DNA from: Escherichia coli O157:H7
Lineage (GTDB): Bacteria; Pseudomonadota; Gammaproteobacteria; Enterobacterales; Enterobacteriaceae
DNA: 64,000 nucleotides
Assembly: GCF_013167455.1 (NCBI RefSeq)
Contig: NZ_CP038328.1
Reading direction: 5' to 3' (one strand)
Below the pieces are notes generated by a model that saw only the letters and a list, made by a program, of their open reading frames with translations, was not told where the DNA came from and did not search any database. Of the stretch, positions 2,801 through 14,955 are shown in pieces. Position numbers and translations under genes: made by a program. Each line of letters starts with the position of its first letter. The first letter of the stretch is position 1.

Positions 2801-4770
2801 CACAACTCGCCATTGGCAAACCCGCTCCCCTCGGCGCGCATTACGACGGTCAGGGCGTCAACTTCACACTTTTCTCCGCTCATGCCGAGCGGGTAGAACT
2901 GTGTGTCTTTGACGCCAATGGCCAGGAACATCGCTATGACTTGCCAGGGCACAGTGGCGACATTTGGCACGGTTATCTGCCGGATGCGCGCCCGGGTTTG
3001 CGTTATGGTTATCGCGTTCATGGCCCCTGGCAACCCGCCGAGGGGCATCGCTTTAACCCGGCGAAGTTGTTGATTGATCCTTGCGCGCGGCAAATTGACG
3101 GGGAGTTTAAAGATAACCCGCTGCTGCACGCCGGTCATAATGAACCTGACTATCGCGACAACGCCGCCATTGCGCCGAAATGCGTAGTGGTGGTTGATCA
3201 CTATGACTGGGAAGATGATGCCCCGCCGCGCACGCCGTGGGGCAGCACCATCATTTATGAAGCCCATGTTAAAGGATTAACGTACCTGCACCCGGAGATC
3301 CCGGTCGAGATCCGTGGCACTTATAAAGCCCTCGGGCATCCGGTGATGATCAACTATTTGAAACAATTGGGCATTACCGCGCTGGAACTGCTGCCAGTGG
3401 CGCAGTTTGCCAGTGAACCACGTCTGCAACGCATGGGGCTAAGTAACTACTGGGGTTACAACCCGGTGGCGATGTTTGCGCTGCATCCGGCGTATGCCTG
3501 CTCGCCAGAAACGGCGCTGCATGAGTTTCGCGATGCAATCAAAGCACTGCATAAAGCGGGTATCGAAGTCATTCTTGATATCGTGCTCAACCATAGTGCG
3601 GAACTGGACCTCGACGGCCCGTTATTCTCGCTGCGTGGGATCGACAACCGTAGCTATTATTGGATAAGAGAAGACGGCGATTATCACAACTGGACCGGTT
3701 GTGGCAACACGCTCAATTTGAGTCACCCGGCGGTGGTGGATTATGCCAGCGCCTGCCTGCGTTATTGGGTAGAAACCTGCCACGTCGATGGTTTCCGCTT
3801 TGATCTGGCGGCAGTCATGGGCCGTACGCCAGAGTTCCGTCAGGATGCGCCGTTGTTTACCGCTATCCAGAACTGCCCGGTGCTCTCGCAGGTGAAGTTA
3901 ATTGCTGAACCGTGGGATATCGCTCCTGGTGGTTATCAGGTGGGAAATTTCCCGCCGCTGTTTGCCGAGTGGAACGATCATTTCCGCGATGCTGCCCGTC
4001 GTTTCTGGCTACATTATGATTTGCCTCTGGGGGCGTTTGCCGGGCGTTTTGCTGCCTCCAGCGATGTTTTTAAACGTAATGGTCGTCTGCCGAGTGCCGC
4101 GATTAATCTCGTCACCGCGCATGACGGTTTTACGCTTCGCGACTGCGTTTGTTTCAACCATAAACACAATGAAGCAAACGGAGAAGAAAATCGCGACGGG
4201 ACCAACAACAATTACAGTAACAATCATGGTAAAGAAGGGGTAGGCGGTACCCTTGACCTGGTTGAACGGCGGCGCGACAGCATTCACGCCCTGTTAACAA
4301 CGTTGTTGCTCTCCCAGGGTACGCCGATGTTACTGGCCGGTGACGAACATGGTCACAGCCAGCATGGCAATAACAATGCCTACTGTCAGGATAACCAATT
4401 AACCTGGTTGGACTGGTCGCAGGCAAGCAGTGGTTTAACCGCATTTACCGCCGCGTTAATCCATCTGCGCAAGCGTATTCCCGCTTTGGTGGAGAATCGC
4501 TGGTGGGAAGAAGGCGACGGCAATGTCCGTTGGCTAAATCGATATGCTCAACCTTTAAGCACGGATGAGTGGCAAAACGGGCCGAAACAGCTGCAAATTC
4601 TGCTCTCGGATCGCTTTTTGATCGCAATTAACGCCACGCTTGAGGTAACAGAGATTGTTTTACCTGCTGGGGAGTGGCACGCCATTCCCCCATTCGCTGG
4701 AGAGGATAACCCAGTGATTACGGCTGTCTGGCAGGGACCTGCACACGGATTGTGTGTGTTCCAGAGATGA
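2797..4770 (+). CDS. glgX: glycogen debranching enzyme
   Basis: 657-aa [26 protein letters not shown]...; ATGA start/stop overlap with glgB. Confidence 0.97.
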
Positions 4771-6083: not shown

Positions 6084-7516
6084 TGCAGGTTTTACATGTA
6101 TGTTCAGAGATGTTCCCGCTGCTTAAAACCGGCGGTCTGGCTGATGTTATTGGGGCATTACCCGCAGCACAAATCGCAGACGGCGTTGACGCTCGCGTAC
6201 TGTTGCCTGCATTTCCCGATATTCGCCGTGGCGTGACCGATGCGCAGGTAGTATCCCGTCGTGATACCTTCGCCGGGCATATCACGCTGTTGTTCGGTCA
6301 TTACAACGGGGTTGGCATATACCTGATTGACGCGCCGCATCTCTATGATCGTCCGGGAAGCCCGTATCACGATACCAACTTATTTGCCTATACCGACAAC
6401 GTATTGCGTTTTGCGCTGCTGGGGTGGGTTGGGGCAGAAATGGCCAGCGGGCTTGACCCATTCTGGCGTCCTGATGTGGTGCATGCGCACGACTGGCATG
6501 CAGGCCTTGCGCCTGCGTATCTGGCGGCGCGCGGGCGTCCGGCGAAGTCGGTGTTTACTGTGCACAACCTGGCCTATCAAGGCATGTTTTATGCACATCA
6601 CATGAATGACATCCAATTGCCATGGTCATTCTTTAATATTCATGGGCTGGAATTCAACGGACAAATCTCTTTCCTGAAGGCCGGTCTGTACTATGCCGAT
6701 CACATTACGGCGGTCAGTCCAACCTACGCTCGCGAGATCACCGAACCGCAGTTTGCCTACGGTATGGAAGGTTTGTTGCAACAGCGTCATCGTGAAGGGC
6801 GTCTTTCCGGCGTACTGAACGGCGTGGACGAGAAAATCTGGAGTCCAGAGACGGACTTACTATTGGCCTCGCGTTACACCCGCGATACGTTGGAAGATAA
6901 AGCGGAAAATAAGCGCCAGTTACAAATCGCAATGGGGCTTAAGGTTGACGATAAAGTGCCGCTTTTTGCAGTGGTGAGCCGTCTGACCAGCCAGAAAGGC
7001 CTCGACCTGGTGCTGGAGGCCTTACCGGGTCTTCTGGAGCAGGGCGGGCAGCTGGCGCTACTCGGCGCGGGCGATCCGGTGCTGCAGGAAGGTTTCCTTG
7101 CGGCGGCAGCGGAATACCCCGGCCAGGTGGGCGTTCAGATTGGCTATCACGAAGCATTTTCGCATCGCATTATGGGCGGTGCGGACGTCATTCTGGTGCC
7201 CAGCCGTTTTGAACCGTGCGGCTTAACGCAACTTTATGGATTGAAGTACGGTACGCTGCCGTTAGTGCGGCGCACCGGTGGGCTTGCTGATACGGTTTCT
7301 GACTGTTCTCTTGAGAACCTTGCAGATGGCGTCGCCAGTGGGTTTGTCTTTGAAGATAGTAATGCCTGGTCGCTGTTACGGGCTATTCGACGTGCTTTTG
7401 TACTGTGGTCCCGTCCTTCTCTGTGGCGGTTTGTGCAACGTCAGGCTATGGCAATGGATTTTAGCTGGCAGGTCGCGGCGAAGTCGTACCGTGAGCTTTA
7501 CTATCGCTTGAAATAG
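6083..7516 (+). CDS. glgA: glycogen synthase
   Basis: 477-aa [25 protein letters not shown]...; 1-nt overlap with the glgC stop (TAATG). Confidence 0.97.
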
Positions 7517-9998: not shown

Positions 9999-10026
9999 AA
10001 CGGGGCCACAAGGTCCCGTTTTTTTC
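9999..10026 (+). terminator. rho-independent terminator of glgCAP
   Basis: 9-bp stem (aacggggcc / ggtcccgtt, one G-U pair), loop acaa, followed by a run of 7 T. Confidence 0.8.
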
Positions 10027-10097
10027 GCCTTTATTTCGGAAAAGTGTCCAGAGGGGGCGAGGGTTCTCGGGGAGTATAATTCCGTCATTCAGGAAGA

Positions 10098-11615
10098 ATG
10101 GACAGAATGATGCCAAATAGAAAATGGATTTTGACCTCGCTGATAATGACTTTTTTCGGCATCCCCATACTGGCGCAATTTTTGGCAGCGGTTGTTGCCA
10201 TGCTGGGTGTCGGGCTTACCGGTATTATTGAAGTTTGTAATATCCTTATCACGCCAACAATTTATCTTCTACTCAACGTCTTTATGCTGACGCTGGGGGC
10301 GATAATAATATTTTTCTCTGGTCGCGTGTGGGCCGGTGATAGCGCGCCAGAAAACAGAGAAATAGCCGTCTGGCGGCAATGCTTTTTTCTCTTACCCGCG
10401 CTATTAACCCTGGTTGGCTGGATAATCACGCTACATCTGGCAGATTATCAATTTCGCCAGATGGGAGCTGGTTGGTTGGCAAACCTTATGCTTCCCTGGT
10501 TGGGCGTTTTTTTAGTCTCATTAGTGGGTGGTGAGTACTGGTGGATGGTCATTATTCCCGTTGGGGCGCATATCAGTTTTTCGCTGGGATACGCCTGGCC
10601 GACCAGATATCCTTTATCCGGCACGTCCGGACTACGTTGCCGTAACTTACTCCTGTTTCTACTTCTCTTACTTGGTATTGTCGCCGGGTATCAGGCCCAT
10701 TTATATAAGCAGCAAAATCCTGGTGTCGGTGTACGCGAAAATATTGATATCAGGGCCTGGCGACCCGATAAACTCAATAATCGACTGACGCCGCTGCGTG
10801 GCAAACCGCAAATTCAGTTTAGGCAAAACTGGCCGCGAATCGATGGCGCCACGGCTGCGTACCCAATTTATGCTTCTGCATTTTATGCATTAAGTGTAAT
10901 ACCAGAGGATTTTCACGTTTGGGAATATCTGGAGAACTCTCGTACCCCCGATGCATATAACCGGATTGTTAAAGGTGATGCCGATATTATTTTTGTGGCG
11001 CAACCCTCCGGCGGGCAGAAAAAACGCGCTGAGGAATCGGGCGTCACTTTGCTATACACGCCATTTGCCCGTGAAGCATTTGTTTTCATCGTCAATGCGG
11101 ATAATCCGGTTAATTCCCTGACTGAACAACAGGTGCGTGACATTTTCAGTGGTGCAATTACCAATTGGCGTACTGTTGGCGGTAACGATCAGGAGATCCA
11201 GACCTGGCAGCGCCCGGAAGACTCTGGCAGCCAGACAGTGATGCAATCACAGGTCATGAAAAAAGTCCGCATGATCTCGCCGCAGGAAACGGAAGTGGCA
11301 AGCGTGATGGAGGGAATGATTAAAGTCGTTGCCGAATACCGTAATACAAACAACGCAATAGGCTATACCTTCCGCTATTACGCGACGCAAATGAATGCTG
11401 ATAAAAATATAAGATTGCTAGCGATTAACGGTATTACACCGACGGCGGAAAACATTCGCAACGGCAAATATGCGTACATCGTCGATGCATTTATGGTGAC
11501 GAGAGAAAATACAACGTCAGAAACACAAAAACTGGTCGAATGGTTTTTAACGCCGCAGGGGCAGAGTCTGGTAGAAGATGTGGGATATGTGCCGCTGTAT
11601 CTAACAATGGAATAA
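10098..11615 (+). CDS. uncharacterised fusion protein: N-terminal polytopic membrane domain (about 6 predicted TM helices, residues 1-210) plus C-terminal PstS-like periplasmic phosphate/anion-binding domain
   Basis: 505-aa ORF; N-terminal half is strongly hydrophobic. C-terminal half carries PstS-family signatures as I recall them: GATAAYPIYASAF, QRPEDSGSQ (compare RADGSGTS in PstS), IGYTFRYYA, ITPTAENIRNG. Start may be M1 or M4/M5; AGGAAG SD precedes 10098. Confidence 0.8.
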   Translation: MDRMMPNRKWILTSLIMTFFGIPILAQFLAAVVAMLGVGLTGIIEVCNILITPTIYLLLNVFMLTLGAIIIFFSGRVWAGDSAPENREIAVWRQCFFLLPALLTLVGWIITLHLADYQFRQMGAGWLANLMLPWLGVFLVSLVGGEYWWMVIIPVGAHISFSLGYAWPTRYPLSGTSGLRCRNLLLFLLLLLGIVAGYQAHLYKQQNPGVGVRENIDIRAWRPDKLNNRLTPLRGKPQIQFRQNWPRIDGATAAYPIYASAFYALSVIPEDFHVWEYLENSRTPDAYNRIVKGDADIIFVAQPSGGQKKRAEESGVTLLYTPFAREAFVFIVNADNPVNSLTEQQVRDIFSGAITNWRTVGGNDQEIQTWQRPEDSGSQTVMQSQVMKKVRMISPQETEVASVMEGMIKVVAEYRNTNNAIGYTFRYYATQMNADKNIRLLAINGITPTAENIRNGKYAYIVDAFMVTRENTTSETQKLVEWFLTPQGQSLVEDVGYVPLYLTME

Positions 11616-11640
11616 CGCTCGAGAGAAAGGAATCAGCGAG

Positions 11641-12633
11641 ATGAATAAATTCACCGGTGTTTTACTATTAGGCACGGCGTTACTGGCGGGATGTGTCGAC
11701 CGGGAAGGGTACTATAACAGCGTCAGGGAAGAAGAGAGCCATGGACTGACGTCTCTGCGGGGGCAACCTGCATTACGTTACAGCGATGATTGGTCAAGAT
11801 GGCCGAGAGTGTACGGCGCTACAGCCTTATACCCGCTGTATGCCTCCGCGTATTATAAATTAGTACCCGAGCCAAAAGATAAGGATCGAACCTCGCTGGC
11901 CTGGCAGGCGTATGGTTTGCAGCAAACCCGAACAGCTGAAGCCTACGATAGTCTGATTAAAGGTTCCGCGACGGTTATTTTTGTTGCACAACCGTCGGAA
12001 GGACAGAAAAAACGTGCAGAAGAAGCGGGTGTTAAACTGAAATATACCGCTTTCGCCCGCGAAGCCTTTGTCTTTATCGTTGATATTAATAACCCGGTAA
12101 ATTCTCTCTCTGAGCACCAGGTTAAAGATATTTTTAGCGGCAAAACTAGCCGCTGGAATAAAGTAGGTGGTAGTGACGAACATATAAAAGTCTGGCAGCG
12201 CCCTGAAGATTCTGGAAGCCAAACGATTATGAAGGGGTTGGTTATGCAAGACACCCCAATGCTGCCAGCTAAAAAATCCACTGTGATTGATCTTATGGGC
12301 GGTTTAATTACTGAAGTTGCCGACTATCAAAACACGCCATCTTCCATTGGGTACACCTTCCACTATTACGTCACTCGTATGAATGACAATATGCTCAAAA
12401 TGCGCAAGCAGATTAAACTTTTGGCTATAAATGGCGTTGCGCCTACCGAGGAAAATATCCGCAACGGCACTTATCCATACATTGTGGATGCCTATATGGT
12501 GACGCGTGAAAATCCCACGCCGGAAACGCAGAAATTTGTTGACTGGTTTATAAGTCAGCAGGGGCAACAGTTGGTAGAGGATGTGGGGTATGTGCCGCTG
12601 TATGAAGCATCCCCCGAATCATCAGGACAATAA
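11641..12633 (+). CDS. PstS-like phosphate/anion-binding lipoprotein (paralog of the C-terminal domain of the upstream gene)
   Basis: 330-aa ORF; signal peptide with lipobox LLAGC; roughly 60-70% identity by eye to residues 230-505 of ORF 10098-11615, sharing the FVAQPS.GQKKRAEE, AREAFVFIV, WQRPEDSGSQT and VEDVGYVPLY blocks. Confidence 0.85.
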   Translation: MNKFTGVLLLGTALLAGCVDREGYYNSVREEESHGLTSLRGQPALRYSDDWSRWPRVYGATALYPLYASAYYKLVPEPKDKDRTSLAWQAYGLQQTRTAEAYDSLIKGSATVIFVAQPSEGQKKRAEEAGVKLKYTAFAREAFVFIVDINNPVNSLSEHQVKDIFSGKTSRWNKVGGSDEHIKVWQRPEDSGSQTIMKGLVMQDTPMLPAKKSTVIDLMGGLITEVADYQNTPSSIGYTFHYYVTRMNDNMLKMRKQIKLLAINGVAPTEENIRNGTYPYIVDAYMVTRENPTPETQKFVDWFISQQGQQLVEDVGYVPLYEASPESSGQ

Positions 12634-13235
12634 TGATGAATATAATCAGACTTTATATTTATCCGTTATTTCTCGGCTTTGTTATTGTACCGTTGTTGGT
12701 GTGGCCGACGGTGGTTGCGCTGGCTGCCTGTGTAATCACGCTGAGTTTTCTGGGAGAAATACTGTTCTCAATCCCGCTCATGCACAGGCGTATTTCCCTT
12801 CTGCAATTACAACTATGGTTATCGGCTGAATATGCGCTTTTCTTCTGTGCAATGGTGGGCGTTGGTTGGCAATTTGCGCGCAGAACGCCACCTGAATTGA
12901 AAAGCAGACTGCATTGTTGGCTGGTATTTGCACCAGTTTATTTCTGGTTGCTCCTGTGGAATATCATTTTTTATGTCGCGCCAGCGCAAATTGCTTTGCT
13001 GGAAAATATGCGCAGTTTCTTTCTGACAGTTGTCTGGCTCCCACTGAATTTTTCGCCATTTTGGTCTCAACAGTGGATCGACTTTGTCGGTCCGATAAGT
13101 GCACAGCTTGGTTTTGCGTTGGGATATTATTGCCAGTGGCGTAGCAAAAATAGAAGCCAGATACGGAAGTGGAGTGAGTGGGGAACGTGCTTAAGTTTTG
13201 TTACGTTGGGTATGATGGCGTGGGCTTTGCGGTAA
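12633..13235 (+). CDS. integral membrane protein (about 6 TM), paralog of the N-terminal membrane domain of ORF 10098-11615
   Basis: 200-aa hydrophobic ORF; its ATG overlaps the upstream stop (TAATG); shares LGFALGYYCQW versus ISFSLGYAWPT and a similar helix spacing with the ORF1 N-domain. Confidence 0.7.
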   Translation: MMNIIRLYIYPLFLGFVIVPLLVWPTVVALAACVITLSFLGEILFSIPLMHRRISLLQLQLWLSAEYALFFCAMVGVGWQFARRTPPELKSRLHCWLVFAPVYFWLLLWNIIFYVAPAQIALLENMRSFFLTVVWLPLNFSPFWSQQWIDFVGPISAQLGFALGYYCQWRSKNRSQIRKWSEWGTCLSFVTLGMMAWALR

Positions 13236-13288
13236 TTCCCTGAATCAAAAAGTAGGTCAGATTGTTGACAACGTGGCGCTTTGTTCAT

Positions 13289-13387
13289 GCCTGATGCGGC
13301 GTGAACGCCTTATCAGGCCTACAAAATCATGCAAATTCAACATATTGCATAAACCACGTAGGCCTGATAAGCGTAGCGCATCAGGCA
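13289..13387. repeat. BIME: two REP elements in inverted orientation
   Basis: gcctgatgcggcgtgaacgccttatcaggcctac (13289-13322) and gtaggcctgataagcgtagcgcatcaggca (13358-13387) match the enterobacterial REP consensus. Confidence 0.85.
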
Positions 13388-13449
13388 ATTTTGTGTTTGT
13401 CATCAGTCTCAGGCCAGATTGAAATCTGACCTGATCACCTTACGTTAAT

Positions 13450-14955
13450 TTACGACGCCAGCGACAACTTCTGCTGCGTATATTCCACCAGCCACTGACT
13501 CACACGAGATTGTTGATCCGCATTCAGCCACATGCCTTGTTTTGTGCGACGCCACAGGGCATCGTCGGCGCGGCGGACCCACTCGTGGTCGACCAGATAT
13601 TTCAGCTCCGTTTCGTAGAACTCATGACCGAAATCTTCCCCAAGATCGCTTACCGCTCCCGCATTGCCGAGCAGCAGCTCGCTGTTGCTGCCATAAGTAC
13701 GCGCGTAATGACGTGCCAGCGATTCGGTCAGGAACGGATAACGGCGGCGTAAGCGAGCGGCATAATCGTCGCGGTCGCCCTCGATGGCGCCACCCGGTAG
13801 CACGCTCTCTTTCGTCCATGCCGGGCCAATACCCTGATAATACGGCGTTAGTTTTTCCAGCGCATGTTCCGCCAGTTTTCGGTAGGTGGTCAGCTTACCG
13901 CCGAATACCGACAGCAGCGGTGCTTTGCCATTTTCATCATGAATATCAAGGGTGTAATCACGGGTAATAGCCTGCGGCGAGTCGGACTCATCATCACACA
14001 GCGGACGCACACCGGAGTAGGTCCAGACGATATCGTCACGGCTAAGCTGTTTTTTAAAGTGCGCGTTATACACTTTCAGCAGGTAATTGATTTCACTCTC
14101 TTCAATCTTCACTGCTTTCGGATCGCCTTTGTATTCCACATCGGTGGTGCCGATGATGGAAAACTCGTCCATCCACGGGATCACGAACACAATACGTTTA
14201 TCTTCGTTTTGCAGAATGTAGGCCTGCTTTTGGGTATGCACGCGCGGCACCACAATATGGCTGCCTTTGATCAGGCGAATGCCATAAGGCGAAGGCAGAT
14301 GCATCCCGTCGTCGAAGAACTGTTTCACCCACGGGCCGGTGGCGTTAACCAGGCCGCGCGCTTGCCAGCTATATTTTTTGCCGGTATCGATATCTTCCGC
14401 TTCCACAATCCACAGGCCGTTTTCGCGACGAGCAGAAGTAGCACGAGTACGAGTAAGCACTTCGCCGCCTTTACGCACCACCATCTGGGCGTTGGCGAGC
14501 ACCAGACGGGCATCGTCTACCCAACAGTCGGAATATTCGAATCCGCGCTTAATTTCCGGTTTTAACACTGAATTTGCGCCAAAACGCAAACCAGTTGATC
14601 CCGGCAGGCTGGTGCGTTTACCCAGATGATCGTACATAAACAGACCAATGCGAATCATCCACGCCGGGCGCAGATGCGGACGATGTGGCAGGCGAAAACG
14701 CATCGGGAAGGCGATATGCGGGGCCATTTTCAGCAGCACTTCACGTTCAGCCAGCGCCTCGCTGACCAGGCGGAATTCATAGTGCTCAAGGTAGCGCAGG
14801 CCACCGTGAATGAGTTTTGAACTGGCGGAAGAGGTCGCGCAAGCGAGATCCTGCGCCTCCAGCATCAGCACGGATAAACCGCGTCCAGCGGCGTCTGCCG
14901 CGATACCAGCACCATTGATGCCGCCACCTATCACAATCAGATCTTTGGTTTCCAT
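13450..14955 (-). CDS. glpD: aerobic sn-glycerol-3-phosphate dehydrogenase
   Basis: ORF track 13450-14970; protein METKDLIVIGGGINGAGIAADAAGRGL... (FAD GGGxxG motif); start set at the internal Met to give the 501-aa form. Confidence 0.95.
   Translation of the reverse strand: METKDLIVIGGGINGAGIAADAAGRGLSVLMLEAQDLACATSSASSKLIHGGLRYLEHYEFRLVSEALAEREVLLKMAPHIAFPMRFRLPHRPHLRPAWMIRIGLFMYDHLGKRTSLPGSTGLRFGANSVLKPEIKRGFEYSDCWVDDARLVLANAQMVVRKGGEVLTRTRATSARRENGLWIVEAEDIDTGKKYSWQARGLVNATGPWVKQFFDDGMHLPSPYGIRLIKGSHIVVPRVHTQKQAYILQNEDKRIVFVIPWMDEFSIIGTTDVEYKGDPKAVKIEESEINYLLKVYNAHFKKQLSRDDIVWTYSGVRPLCDDESDSPQAITRDYTLDIHDENGKAPLLSVFGGKLTTYRKLAEHALEKLTPYYQGIGPAWTKESVLPGGAIEGDRDDYAARLRRRYPFLTESLARHYARTYGSNSELLLGNAGAVSDLGEDFGHEFYETELKYLVDHEWVRRADDALWRRTKQGMWLNADQQSRVSQWLVEYTQQKLSLAS

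Follow-up and report, generated by a model that had tools for sequence, protein, structure and literature searches.

What do PstS-like binding proteins do at a chromosomal site that encodes no transporter for them to serve? This question is raised by the islet between glgP and glpD in a 64,000-nucleotide stretch of Escherichia coli O157:H7 DNA (contig NZ_CP038328.1; "the window" below means this whole stretch), which is 100% identical to several E. coli O157:H7 chromosomes. The islet, which from its locus tags we take to be O-island 133 (OI-133) of EDL933, contains three intact open reading frames (ORFs) on the + strand (ORF1, 10098-11615; ORF2, 11641-12633; ORF3, 12633-13235) and no gene for a permease or an ATPase, its neighbours being glgP and glpD. 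RefSeq labels both ORF1 and ORF2 'PstS family phosphate ABC transporter substrate-binding protein'. A first-pass annotation, made from the sequence alone, had described three intact, co-directional and translationally coupled genes that encode a fusion of an about six-transmembrane (6-TM) domain with a PstS-type domain, a lipoprotein paralog of the binding domain and a paralog of the membrane domain. All of this was borne out, with ORF1 being 502 amino acids (aa) long from the RefSeq start. The spacer between ORF1 and ORF2 is 25 nt and contains a Shine-Dalgarno sequence, AAAGGA, and ORF2 and ORF3 overlap in TAATG, so that ORF3 is translationally coupled to ORF2.

We propose that the islet encodes three pieces of one envelope protein family, in which a PstS-fold 'Venus-flytrap' domain is combined with a dedicated polytopic membrane domain. 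The binding domain, lying outside the cytoplasmic membrane, would capture a phosphate-type ligand at the membrane surface; the ligand may be an oxyanion in free form, but a phosphoryl group carried by a larger molecule of the envelope is more likely. The partner of the binding domain would be its own membrane domain, in place of the permease and ATPase of an ATP-binding cassette (ABC) system, and the outcome would then be local binding, retention or hand-over, not ATP-driven import. We give this transporter-independent capture a probability of roughly 0.4. What we infer in this proposal is that the ORF1 binding domain is periplasmic, what its ligand is and that the membrane and binding domains are functionally coupled. 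The evidence in its favor is that the binding domains are PstS-type and keep most PstS ligand positions, that the membrane domain is nearly always fused to a binding domain, that AlphaFold2 (AF2) places the two domains in a defined arrangement, that the family is widespread, is under purifying selection and has no ABC neighbours, and that split or tandem arrangements recur in Escherichia sp. E1V33, Pseudocitrobacter and distant metagenomes.

The binding domains of ORF1 and ORF2 are PstS-like

The Pfam model PBP_like_2 (PF12849) matched residues 247-485 of ORF1 (1.2e-28) and 94-306 of ORF2 (8e-30), and neither ORF1 residues 1-230 nor ORF3 had a match in Pfam, as the first-pass annotation had expected of such a search. 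The C-terminal domain of ORF1 and ORF2 share 57% identity (E 9e-117). The closest solved structures by sequence were bacterial PstS proteins (4N13, 4Q8R/4GD5, 9L8J, 4EXL and 1TWY; E 1e-16 to 1e-19), with the alignment spanning the C-terminal two thirds. When the AF2 model of ORF1 was compared with the PDB by Foldseek, the best 29 matches, with target-normalised TM-scores of up to 0.79, were phosphate-binding proteins (led by 4GD5, 9L8J, 1TWY, 4N13 and 4EXL), followed by ModA. The PstS-like signatures that had been pointed out earlier, GATAxYPxYAS, RPEDSGSQ, PT(A/E)EN and IGYTF, are present and do not vary across relatives. In what we take to be the E. coli PstS numbering (T10, S38, D56, R135, S139, G140, T141), motif and profile alignment showed that the equivalents of Thr10 (in GAT) and of Arg135, Ser139, Gly140 and Thr141, the last replaced by Ser (in R-P-E-D-S-G-S), are invariant across 16-50 relatives, and that the Ser38 region reads S/T-R-T in relatives of ORF1 and ORF2. 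A PstS-type assignment of both domains is thus supported by Pfam, by NCBIfam at scores below its cutoff and by predicted fold, and a phosphate-type ligand is plausible.

ORF2 has a signal peptide with a lipobox of the pattern [LVI][ASTVI][GAS]C, MNKFTGVLLLGTALLAG-C18 (LLAG-C18), whose Cys is kept across the lipoprotein clade described below. We infer from these residues that ORF2 is acylated and sorted, and sorting to the outer membrane is predicted because residue +2 after the Cys is Val.

Like PstS and other TIGR02136 proteins, the islet proteins have the type II periplasmic-binding-protein fold, homology in the C-lobe and equivalents of Thr10, Arg135, Ser139, Gly140 and Thr141, and ORF2 is a predicted exported lipoprotein, as many PstS proteins are. 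They differ in scoring about 85 bits below the TIGR02136 cutoff, in a divergent N-lobe, in extra invariant residues and in having Gln in place of Asp56, as well as in the fusion or pairing of the binding domain with a polytopic membrane domain and in the absence of pstCAB neighbours and of a Pho box. DING proteins also combine the PstS fold with the lack of a genetic link to an ABC system; they differ in being soluble proteins of about 370 aa with no membrane domain, and were distant structural matches (target-normalised TM-score about 0.46-0.49).

The membrane domain forms a family of its own

AF2 predicted six helices in the N-terminal part of ORF1 (residues 5-44, 50-76, 84-111, 116-141, which is kinked, 146-166 and 174-203). 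The full-length model, with a pLDDT of 90.5 and a pTM of 0.82 for 502 aa, confidently places the membrane and binding domains relative to each other. Searches of Pfam, NCBIfam, PHROGs and PADLOC returned nothing for the membrane domain or ORF3, and the domain had no family match in the PDB. No homology of the domain to ABC permeases, TRAP DctQM, TTT, MFS or Pit/PiT was found in sequence or fold, in agreement with the earlier remark that it resembles no recognised transporter family. Invariant in the ORF1 membrane domain are P23 and the motifs LLLLPAL and PVGxQ..F.LGY.

When the membrane domain or ORF3 was the query of a word-indexed homolog search, only Escherichia sequences came up; an exhaustive profile search was required for the wider family to become visible. 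In 1.84 billion representatives, the domain was found in only 166 clusters, most of which contain proteins of 470-540 aa, the length of its fusion with the binding domain; a smaller number, of about 180-220 aa, consist of the membrane domain alone. Its structural neighbours in AFDB50 were exclusively fusions of the membrane domain and the binding domain. For ORF3, BLASTP against the ORF1 membrane domain was not significant and a shallow profile comparison (8 vs 14 sequences) gave E 0.059. With a 47-sequence profile, hhalign returned a probability of 97.6% and E 2.6e-12 over 177 columns, and hmmsearch returned 1.5e-47. The two share the motifs LLxxP and PxxAQ..F.LGYY, and by these deep profiles ORF3 is a genuine paralog of the membrane domain in ORF1.

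A binding domain beside a membrane domain, in fused as well as split versions, is likewise found in GlnPQ/OpuA-type ABC importers and in TRAP and TTT systems. Unlike those, the islet proteins have a membrane domain of about six helices with no detectable similarity to ABC permeases, DctQ/M or TctA/B, and lack an ATPase or an obvious polar translocation path; the resemblance is architectural only.

These comparisons bear on the possibility that the islet proteins are auxiliary binding proteins supplying a remote ABC importer such as PstCAB with phosphate or a phosphate ester, with the membrane domain being no more than an anchor. The existence of several PstS paralogs for one transporter, and of membrane-anchored substrate-binding proteins in Gram-positives, is established biology and provides a precedent; the islet proteins resemble PstS in fold and in most ligand residues, and the Bacillota members described below have a 3-TM anchor only. 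However, a 6-TM domain that is under purifying selection, has invariant residues and also exists as the separate gene ORF3 exceeds the needs of an anchor, and the fixed arrangement of membrane and binding domains in the AF2 model would hinder docking to a permease. The scores also lie under the PstS equivalog and subfamily cutoffs, the window has no Pho box and a linked permease was never found. We consider such delivery quite improbable.

The fused architecture of ORF1 is widespread

Among GTDB species representatives, we found 363 relatives. The 6-TM-fused form occurs in Enterobacterales. Versions in Bacillota (Planococcaceae, Paenibacillus), Treponema and Bacteroidia are about 390 aa long, have a 3-TM anchor, share 38-46% identity with ORF2 and are mostly stand-alone genes. 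Klebsiella, Phytobacter, Superficieibacter, Pseudocitrobacter and Intestinirhabdus have ORF1-type genes in the same glgP-glpD slot, the ORF1-type gene of Salmonella adjoins glpD, and Rahnella has a lone ORF1-type gene between purB and phoPQ. We surveyed the neighbours at 80 GTDB loci and about 20 other loci. No dedicated ABC permease or ATPase was a recurrent neighbour at these approximately 100 loci, which extends the first-pass observation that such a partner is missing from the islet. Neighbour clustering over the 80 loci pointed to no functional partner and recovered only lineage-specific synteny, with glg/glp genes in enterics and with fhs, an XRE regulator, EamA, an SNF symporter, an esterase and others in Bacillota.

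In a neighbour-joining tree, the lipoproteins formed one clade nested inside the enterobacterial membrane-fused forms, and ORF2 of O157 clustered with other lipoproteins of the glgP slot. ORF1 is the ancestral fused form, and ORF2 is a derivative that retained only the binding domain, as a lipoprotein. In the Pseudocitrobacter slot, a lipoprotein gene overlaps a gene that encodes the membrane domain and a degenerate binding domain; three binding-domain genes follow one another in tandem in E. coli TA054; and K. oxytoca has a binding-domain remnant after ORF1. Because of these arrangements, ORF3 is best interpreted as the membrane portion of another fusion copy whose binding domain was lost. 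Split lipoprotein and membrane-domain genes also occur in Escherichia sp. E1V33, and pseudogenised or truncated copies are common in the family, with many fragmentary database entries. As judged from these gene orders, the islet arose by tandem duplication and partial loss, and is not a fixed three-part machine. The formation of ORF2 and ORF3 by simple fission of ORF1 was considered and rejected, on the grounds that the order is binding domain then membrane domain and that the Pseudocitrobacter locus shows the ancestor of ORF3 to have been a full fusion gene.

In distant metagenomes, a membrane-only gene lies directly upstream of a full fusion gene (L014 194-2276), and elsewhere two fusion paralogs flank PdaC/DUF3298 genes (L016 1904-7003). 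Tandem paralogy therefore extends beyond Escherichia.

Across Enterobacteriaceae, ORF1 is the conserved core of the site, and in Rahnella and Bacillota it occurs on its own. The view of the locus as one fixed three-gene system, which the first-pass annotation had implied, did not survive this comparison, also because ORF2 is replaced in most E. coli that keep the islet.

The glgP-glpD slot is polymorphic in E. coli

The three-gene form was present (at least 80% coverage) in 882 of 5,426 complete E. coli genomes, in each at 90% nucleotide identity or more, and at least one binding-domain gene of the family was present in about 3,350 of the 5,426. In a search of plasmids, the family was essentially absent. 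To describe the slot itself, we read its state from an even-step sample of the ranked E. coli genome matches and distinguished at least five states. In addition to the O157 three-gene form, these were ORF1 followed by a YbbD-family gene, a 255-aa gene and an allele of ORF3; ORF1 with the 255-aa gene and ORF3; a fimbrial operon with YbbD, the 255-aa gene and ORF3, without ORF1; and the K-12 state, in which window positions 10331-13176 are cleanly deleted. The islet is deleted in K-12 and about one quarter of the sampled E. coli, and most of those that keep it have YbbD-family and other cytoplasmic genes in place of ORF2. As the first-pass annotation had stated, yzgL of K-12 is a remnant at this position, but not one with homology to solute-binding proteins: it matches the start of the ORF1 membrane domain, comprising its first 74 codons.

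The fimbrial state is represented by E. coli Jnd12 (L004 1-3382), where a chaperone-usher fimbrial operon replaces ORF1 upstream of YbbD-like, 255-aa and ORF3-like genes. With a fimbrial operon among its contents, the glgP-glpD slot is therefore a multi-cargo integration hotspot.

The ratio dN/dS was 0.17-0.32 for the membrane part of ORF1, 0.09-0.14 for its binding part and 0.23-0.47 for ORF3, which indicates purifying selection on all parts. Synonymous divergence was high: dS was 0.2-0.44 for ORF1 and about 0.8 (up to 0.84) between ORF3 classes, and 0.02-0.16 for the adjacent end of glgP. By this measure, the islet alleles are either very old or imported. The 3' end of glpD (13450-13990) had a dS of 0.15-0.34 against the E. 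coli loci L002, L003 and L005, compared with 0.02-0.16 at the glgP end, which points to recombination or import of alleles at the islet that reaches into glpD.

In agreement with the first-pass statement that the locus is uncharacterised, we found no functional study of the ORF1-ORF3 proteins in the literature, where our searches returned only an RpoS microarray entry and an OI-133 deletion screen. In that screen, the delta-OI-133 mutant showed lowered type III secretion (PMC3378721; PMC10877973). This result is a hint from experiment that the island is not inert, and knowing what the islet does could therefore matter for the regulation of virulence or the physiology of the envelope in enterohaemorrhagic E. 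coli.

Deletion of the islet in K-12 and a quarter of the sample, together with the frequency of broken copies (the K. oxytoca remnant, the degenerate binding domain of Pseudocitrobacter and fragmentary entries), could also mean that the three genes are decaying remnants of a tandemly duplicated gene and have no function in O157. Against this, all three ORFs are intact and have coupled translation signals, dN/dS is 0.09-0.47, the three-gene form is kept at 90% nucleotide identity or above in 882 complete genomes, and the delta-OI-133 mutant has a secretion phenotype (PMC3378721). Decay without function is therefore very improbable.

Lipoproteins of the ORF2 clade occur in Rhs arrays

Lipoproteins of the ORF2 clade, with 66-68% domain identity to ORF2, are also found in type VI secretion system (T6SS)/Rhs arrays at four loci. 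The gene order is vgrG, Rhs, lipoprotein, Rhs in E. albertii and tssB, hcp, vgrG, Rhs, a 148-aa gene, lipoprotein, Rhs in E. coli EC42405. The other two loci are Salmonella arrays, which are rich in Rhs core-end fragments and also contain an Ntox34 fragment, a YibA-like HEAT protein and an HExxH toxin/lipoprotein pair. One and the same unannotated Rhs C-terminal domain (67% identity, tblastn 6e-51) precedes the lipoprotein as its immediate neighbour in both E. albertii and Salmonella, with a gap of 100-260 nt between this toxin domain and the lipoprotein; the Salmonella domain has stop codons and the lipoprotein that adjoins it is intact. Such a layout is typical of toxin/immunity modules. The Rhs C-terminal domain carries the motifs YLVNRDLS.FGSGSR, YSWGN, KGWNK.QPED and KKENEH, and had no match in NCBIfam or the PDB. 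A metagenome scan for it returned one locus, at which a 55% identical homolog is followed by a 105-aa polytopic membrane protein. The similarity of this small protein to the membrane-domain family was not significant and was not used as evidence.

Genes of the YbbD family, which lie between ORF1 and ORF3 in other strains and genera, provide a second link to Rhs elements, since K-12 ybbD directly follows the orphan Rhs fragment ylbH. YbbD-family proteins have a common N-terminus of about 45 residues and differing C-terminal parts (L002 2231-2941, L007 7838-8958, L006 7564-8109 and K-12 L101 7641-8131). In K. oxytoca, the YbbD N-terminus is part of a 234-aa protein, and the match to YbbD residues 45-180 lies in the gene that follows. 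By analogy, this arrangement looks like the cassette displacement of polymorphic loci.

Two further observations were made in the Salmonella array L017. At 3301-4436, a PAAR-like fragment is followed by a 135-aa HExxH (metallopeptidase-like) protein and a 154-aa lipoprotein, which are probably another toxin/immunity pair acting in the periplasm. After the second PstS-like lipoprotein comes a 108-aa polytopic membrane protein (6131-6457).

The Rhs context raises the alternative that ORF2, and possibly ORF1 and ORF3, protect the envelope against an Rhs/T6SS toxin that acts in the periplasm or on the membrane, with the islet being a cluster of orphan immunity genes. The four array loci and the placement of the lipoprotein after the same C-terminal domain in E. 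albertii and Salmonella, where the toxin is a pseudogene and the lipoprotein is not, would fit such a role, as would the YbbD-family genes between ORF1 and ORF3 with their link to ylbH in K-12. The presence/absence polymorphism of the islet, its low GC content and its very deep alleles (dS 0.2-0.84 vs 0.02-0.16 for glgP) count in the same direction, and the small polytopic membrane protein that follows the metagenomic toxin homolog suggests a membrane-proximal target. In comparison with Tai/Tli/Tsi and RhsI immunity proteins, the ORF2-clade genes are alike in following an Rhs toxin domain or lying between Rhs genes, in encoding predicted exported lipoproteins and in persisting as orphan copies beside degraded toxins. 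They differ in a pocket and sequence that are far more conserved than is usual and in the lack of a cognate toxin in the O157 window. To our knowledge, no immunity family has the PstS fold.

Several results speak against the immunity role. Neither an Rhs gene nor a toxin gene was found in the islet or elsewhere in the 64-kb window, and no PADLOC defence model matched ORF1-ORF3 at E <= 0.1, nor did any other defence model. A reading of the islet as a defence island was considered and rejected. The gaps of 100-260 nt between toxin domain and lipoprotein also count against it, and the metagenomic toxin homolog is paired with the non-homologous 105-aa membrane protein and no binding protein. Deep conservation, an invariant pocket of the small-ligand type and stable stand-alone synteny in Bacillota are atypical of immunity proteins. 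Taking both sides together, we regard protection from a toxin as the main rival to our proposal, unlikely but with a chance that is far from negligible.

Evidence against transporter-independent capture

The proposed capture of a phosphate-type ligand by a binding domain and its own membrane domain also has to be weighed against several of our results. For the ligand, TIGR02136 scored ORF1 at 122.2 bits and ORF2 at 119.1 bits against a curated cutoff of 206.6, and TIGR00975 gave 15.8 bits against a cutoff of 205. The position of PstS Asp56 is an unvarying Gln in relatives of ORF1 and ORF2, and no Pho box was found anywhere in the 64-kb window with up to 3 mismatches allowed. Because of the sub-cutoff scores, the Gln and the missing Pho box, phosphate is a plausible but unproven ligand; of the oxyanion proposal in the first-pass annotation, the PstS fold and residues uphold the plausibility, and phosphate itself is not established.

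For the membrane domain, conserved polar residues are few, and there is therefore no evident transport path. Six helices together with an outside C-terminus imply an outside N-terminus, yet the N-terminus of ORF1 is basic; it would lie outside unless the 40-residue helix 1 is a hairpin. Placement of ORF2 in the outer membrane, as predicted, would make a tight ORF2-ORF3 complex less likely. In addition, K-12 lacks the islet with no known consequence, most E. coli lack ORF2, and the Rhs-array context of the ORF2 clade points to a different selective role. The earlier description of the locus as an uncharacterised anion-binding or sensing system consequently stands as far as uncharacterised PstS-like membrane proteins are concerned; phosphate sensing is not established, and the Rhs context opens the competing immunity reading.

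The two lines of evidence could be combined. ORF2 and the new membrane domain (of ORF1 and ORF3) might neutralise a membrane-proximal Rhs/T6SS toxin through occupation or shielding of a phosphorylated ligand in the envelope, for example a lipid-linked phosphate, rather than by capping the toxin. This proposal is rather improbable; if true, PstS-fold envelope proteins would form a new class of immunity factor, and the role of the widely conserved membrane-PstS family in Gram-negatives and Gram-positives alike would be to guard or handle that ligand.

If transporter-independent capture is correct, the phosphate-binding fold has been repurposed across phyla as a membrane device that works with no transporter and that includes an undescribed membrane domain. 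The RefSeq name 'phosphate ABC transporter substrate-binding protein', carried by thousands of family members, is probably misleading. The recurrence of the lipoprotein branch in T6SS/Rhs arrays ties a PstS-like pocket to resistance against interbacterial toxins in a concrete way that can be tested. What is new here is that the fused architecture is widespread, that the three genes are not an obligate module and that a clade of the lipoproteins lies in Rhs arrays.

Gene structure, composition and edges of the islet

The coordinates of the features are collected in Table 1. Three in-frame ATGs (10098, 10107 and 10110) could start ORF1; RefSeq picks 10107, which fits the AGGAAG Shine-Dalgarno sequence better than 10098 does. 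The candidate -10 hexamer upstream of ORF1 had no matching -35 element by scan, and the glgP terminator was read from the sequence and was not listed by the consensus scan. The GC content of the islet is 46.9% (47-50% at third codon positions, GC3), compared with 51-55% (GC3 58-67%) in the flanking glgCAP and glpDEGR genes; the AT-richness that had been noticed by eye is therefore real.

Table 1. Features of the glgP-glpD islet and positions of the associated Rhs C-terminal domain
Feature	Sequence	Position	Strand	Remarks
glgP intrinsic terminator	window	10001..10025	+	stem CGGGGCC/GGTCCCG, then T-run; upstream islet edge
Candidate -10 hexamer TATAAT, upstream of ORF1	window	10075..10080	+	from sequence only
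ORF1, WP_000982774.1	window	10107..11615	+	502 aa, RefSeq start; 505 aa from ATG 10098
ORF1 membrane domain	window	10107..10724	+	about residues 1-206; unannotated domain family
ORF1 PstS-fold (PBP_like_2) domain	window	10827..11612	+	about residues 241-502; PF12849, TIGR02136, Foldseek
ORF2, WP_001032214.1	window	11641..12633	+	330 aa, lipoprotein paralog of the binding domain
ORF3, WP_000981061.1	window	12633..13235	+	200 aa, membrane domain-only paralog
REP/BIME-type palindromic repeats	window	13270..13420		ORF3-glpD interval; approximate downstream islet edge
Rhs C-terminal domain	E. albertii L020	4501-4893		about 130 aa
Rhs C-terminal domain	Salmonella L017/L018	1598-1972		about 130 aa
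Rhs C-terminal domain	metagenome L103	1961-2248		about 130 aa

Downstream of ORF3, glpD is convergent to the islet genes and lies beyond the palindromic repeats (repetitive extragenic palindromes, REP, or bacterial interspersed mosaic elements, BIME). Because of these repeats, megablast returned about 129,000 dispersed places in E. coli genomes.

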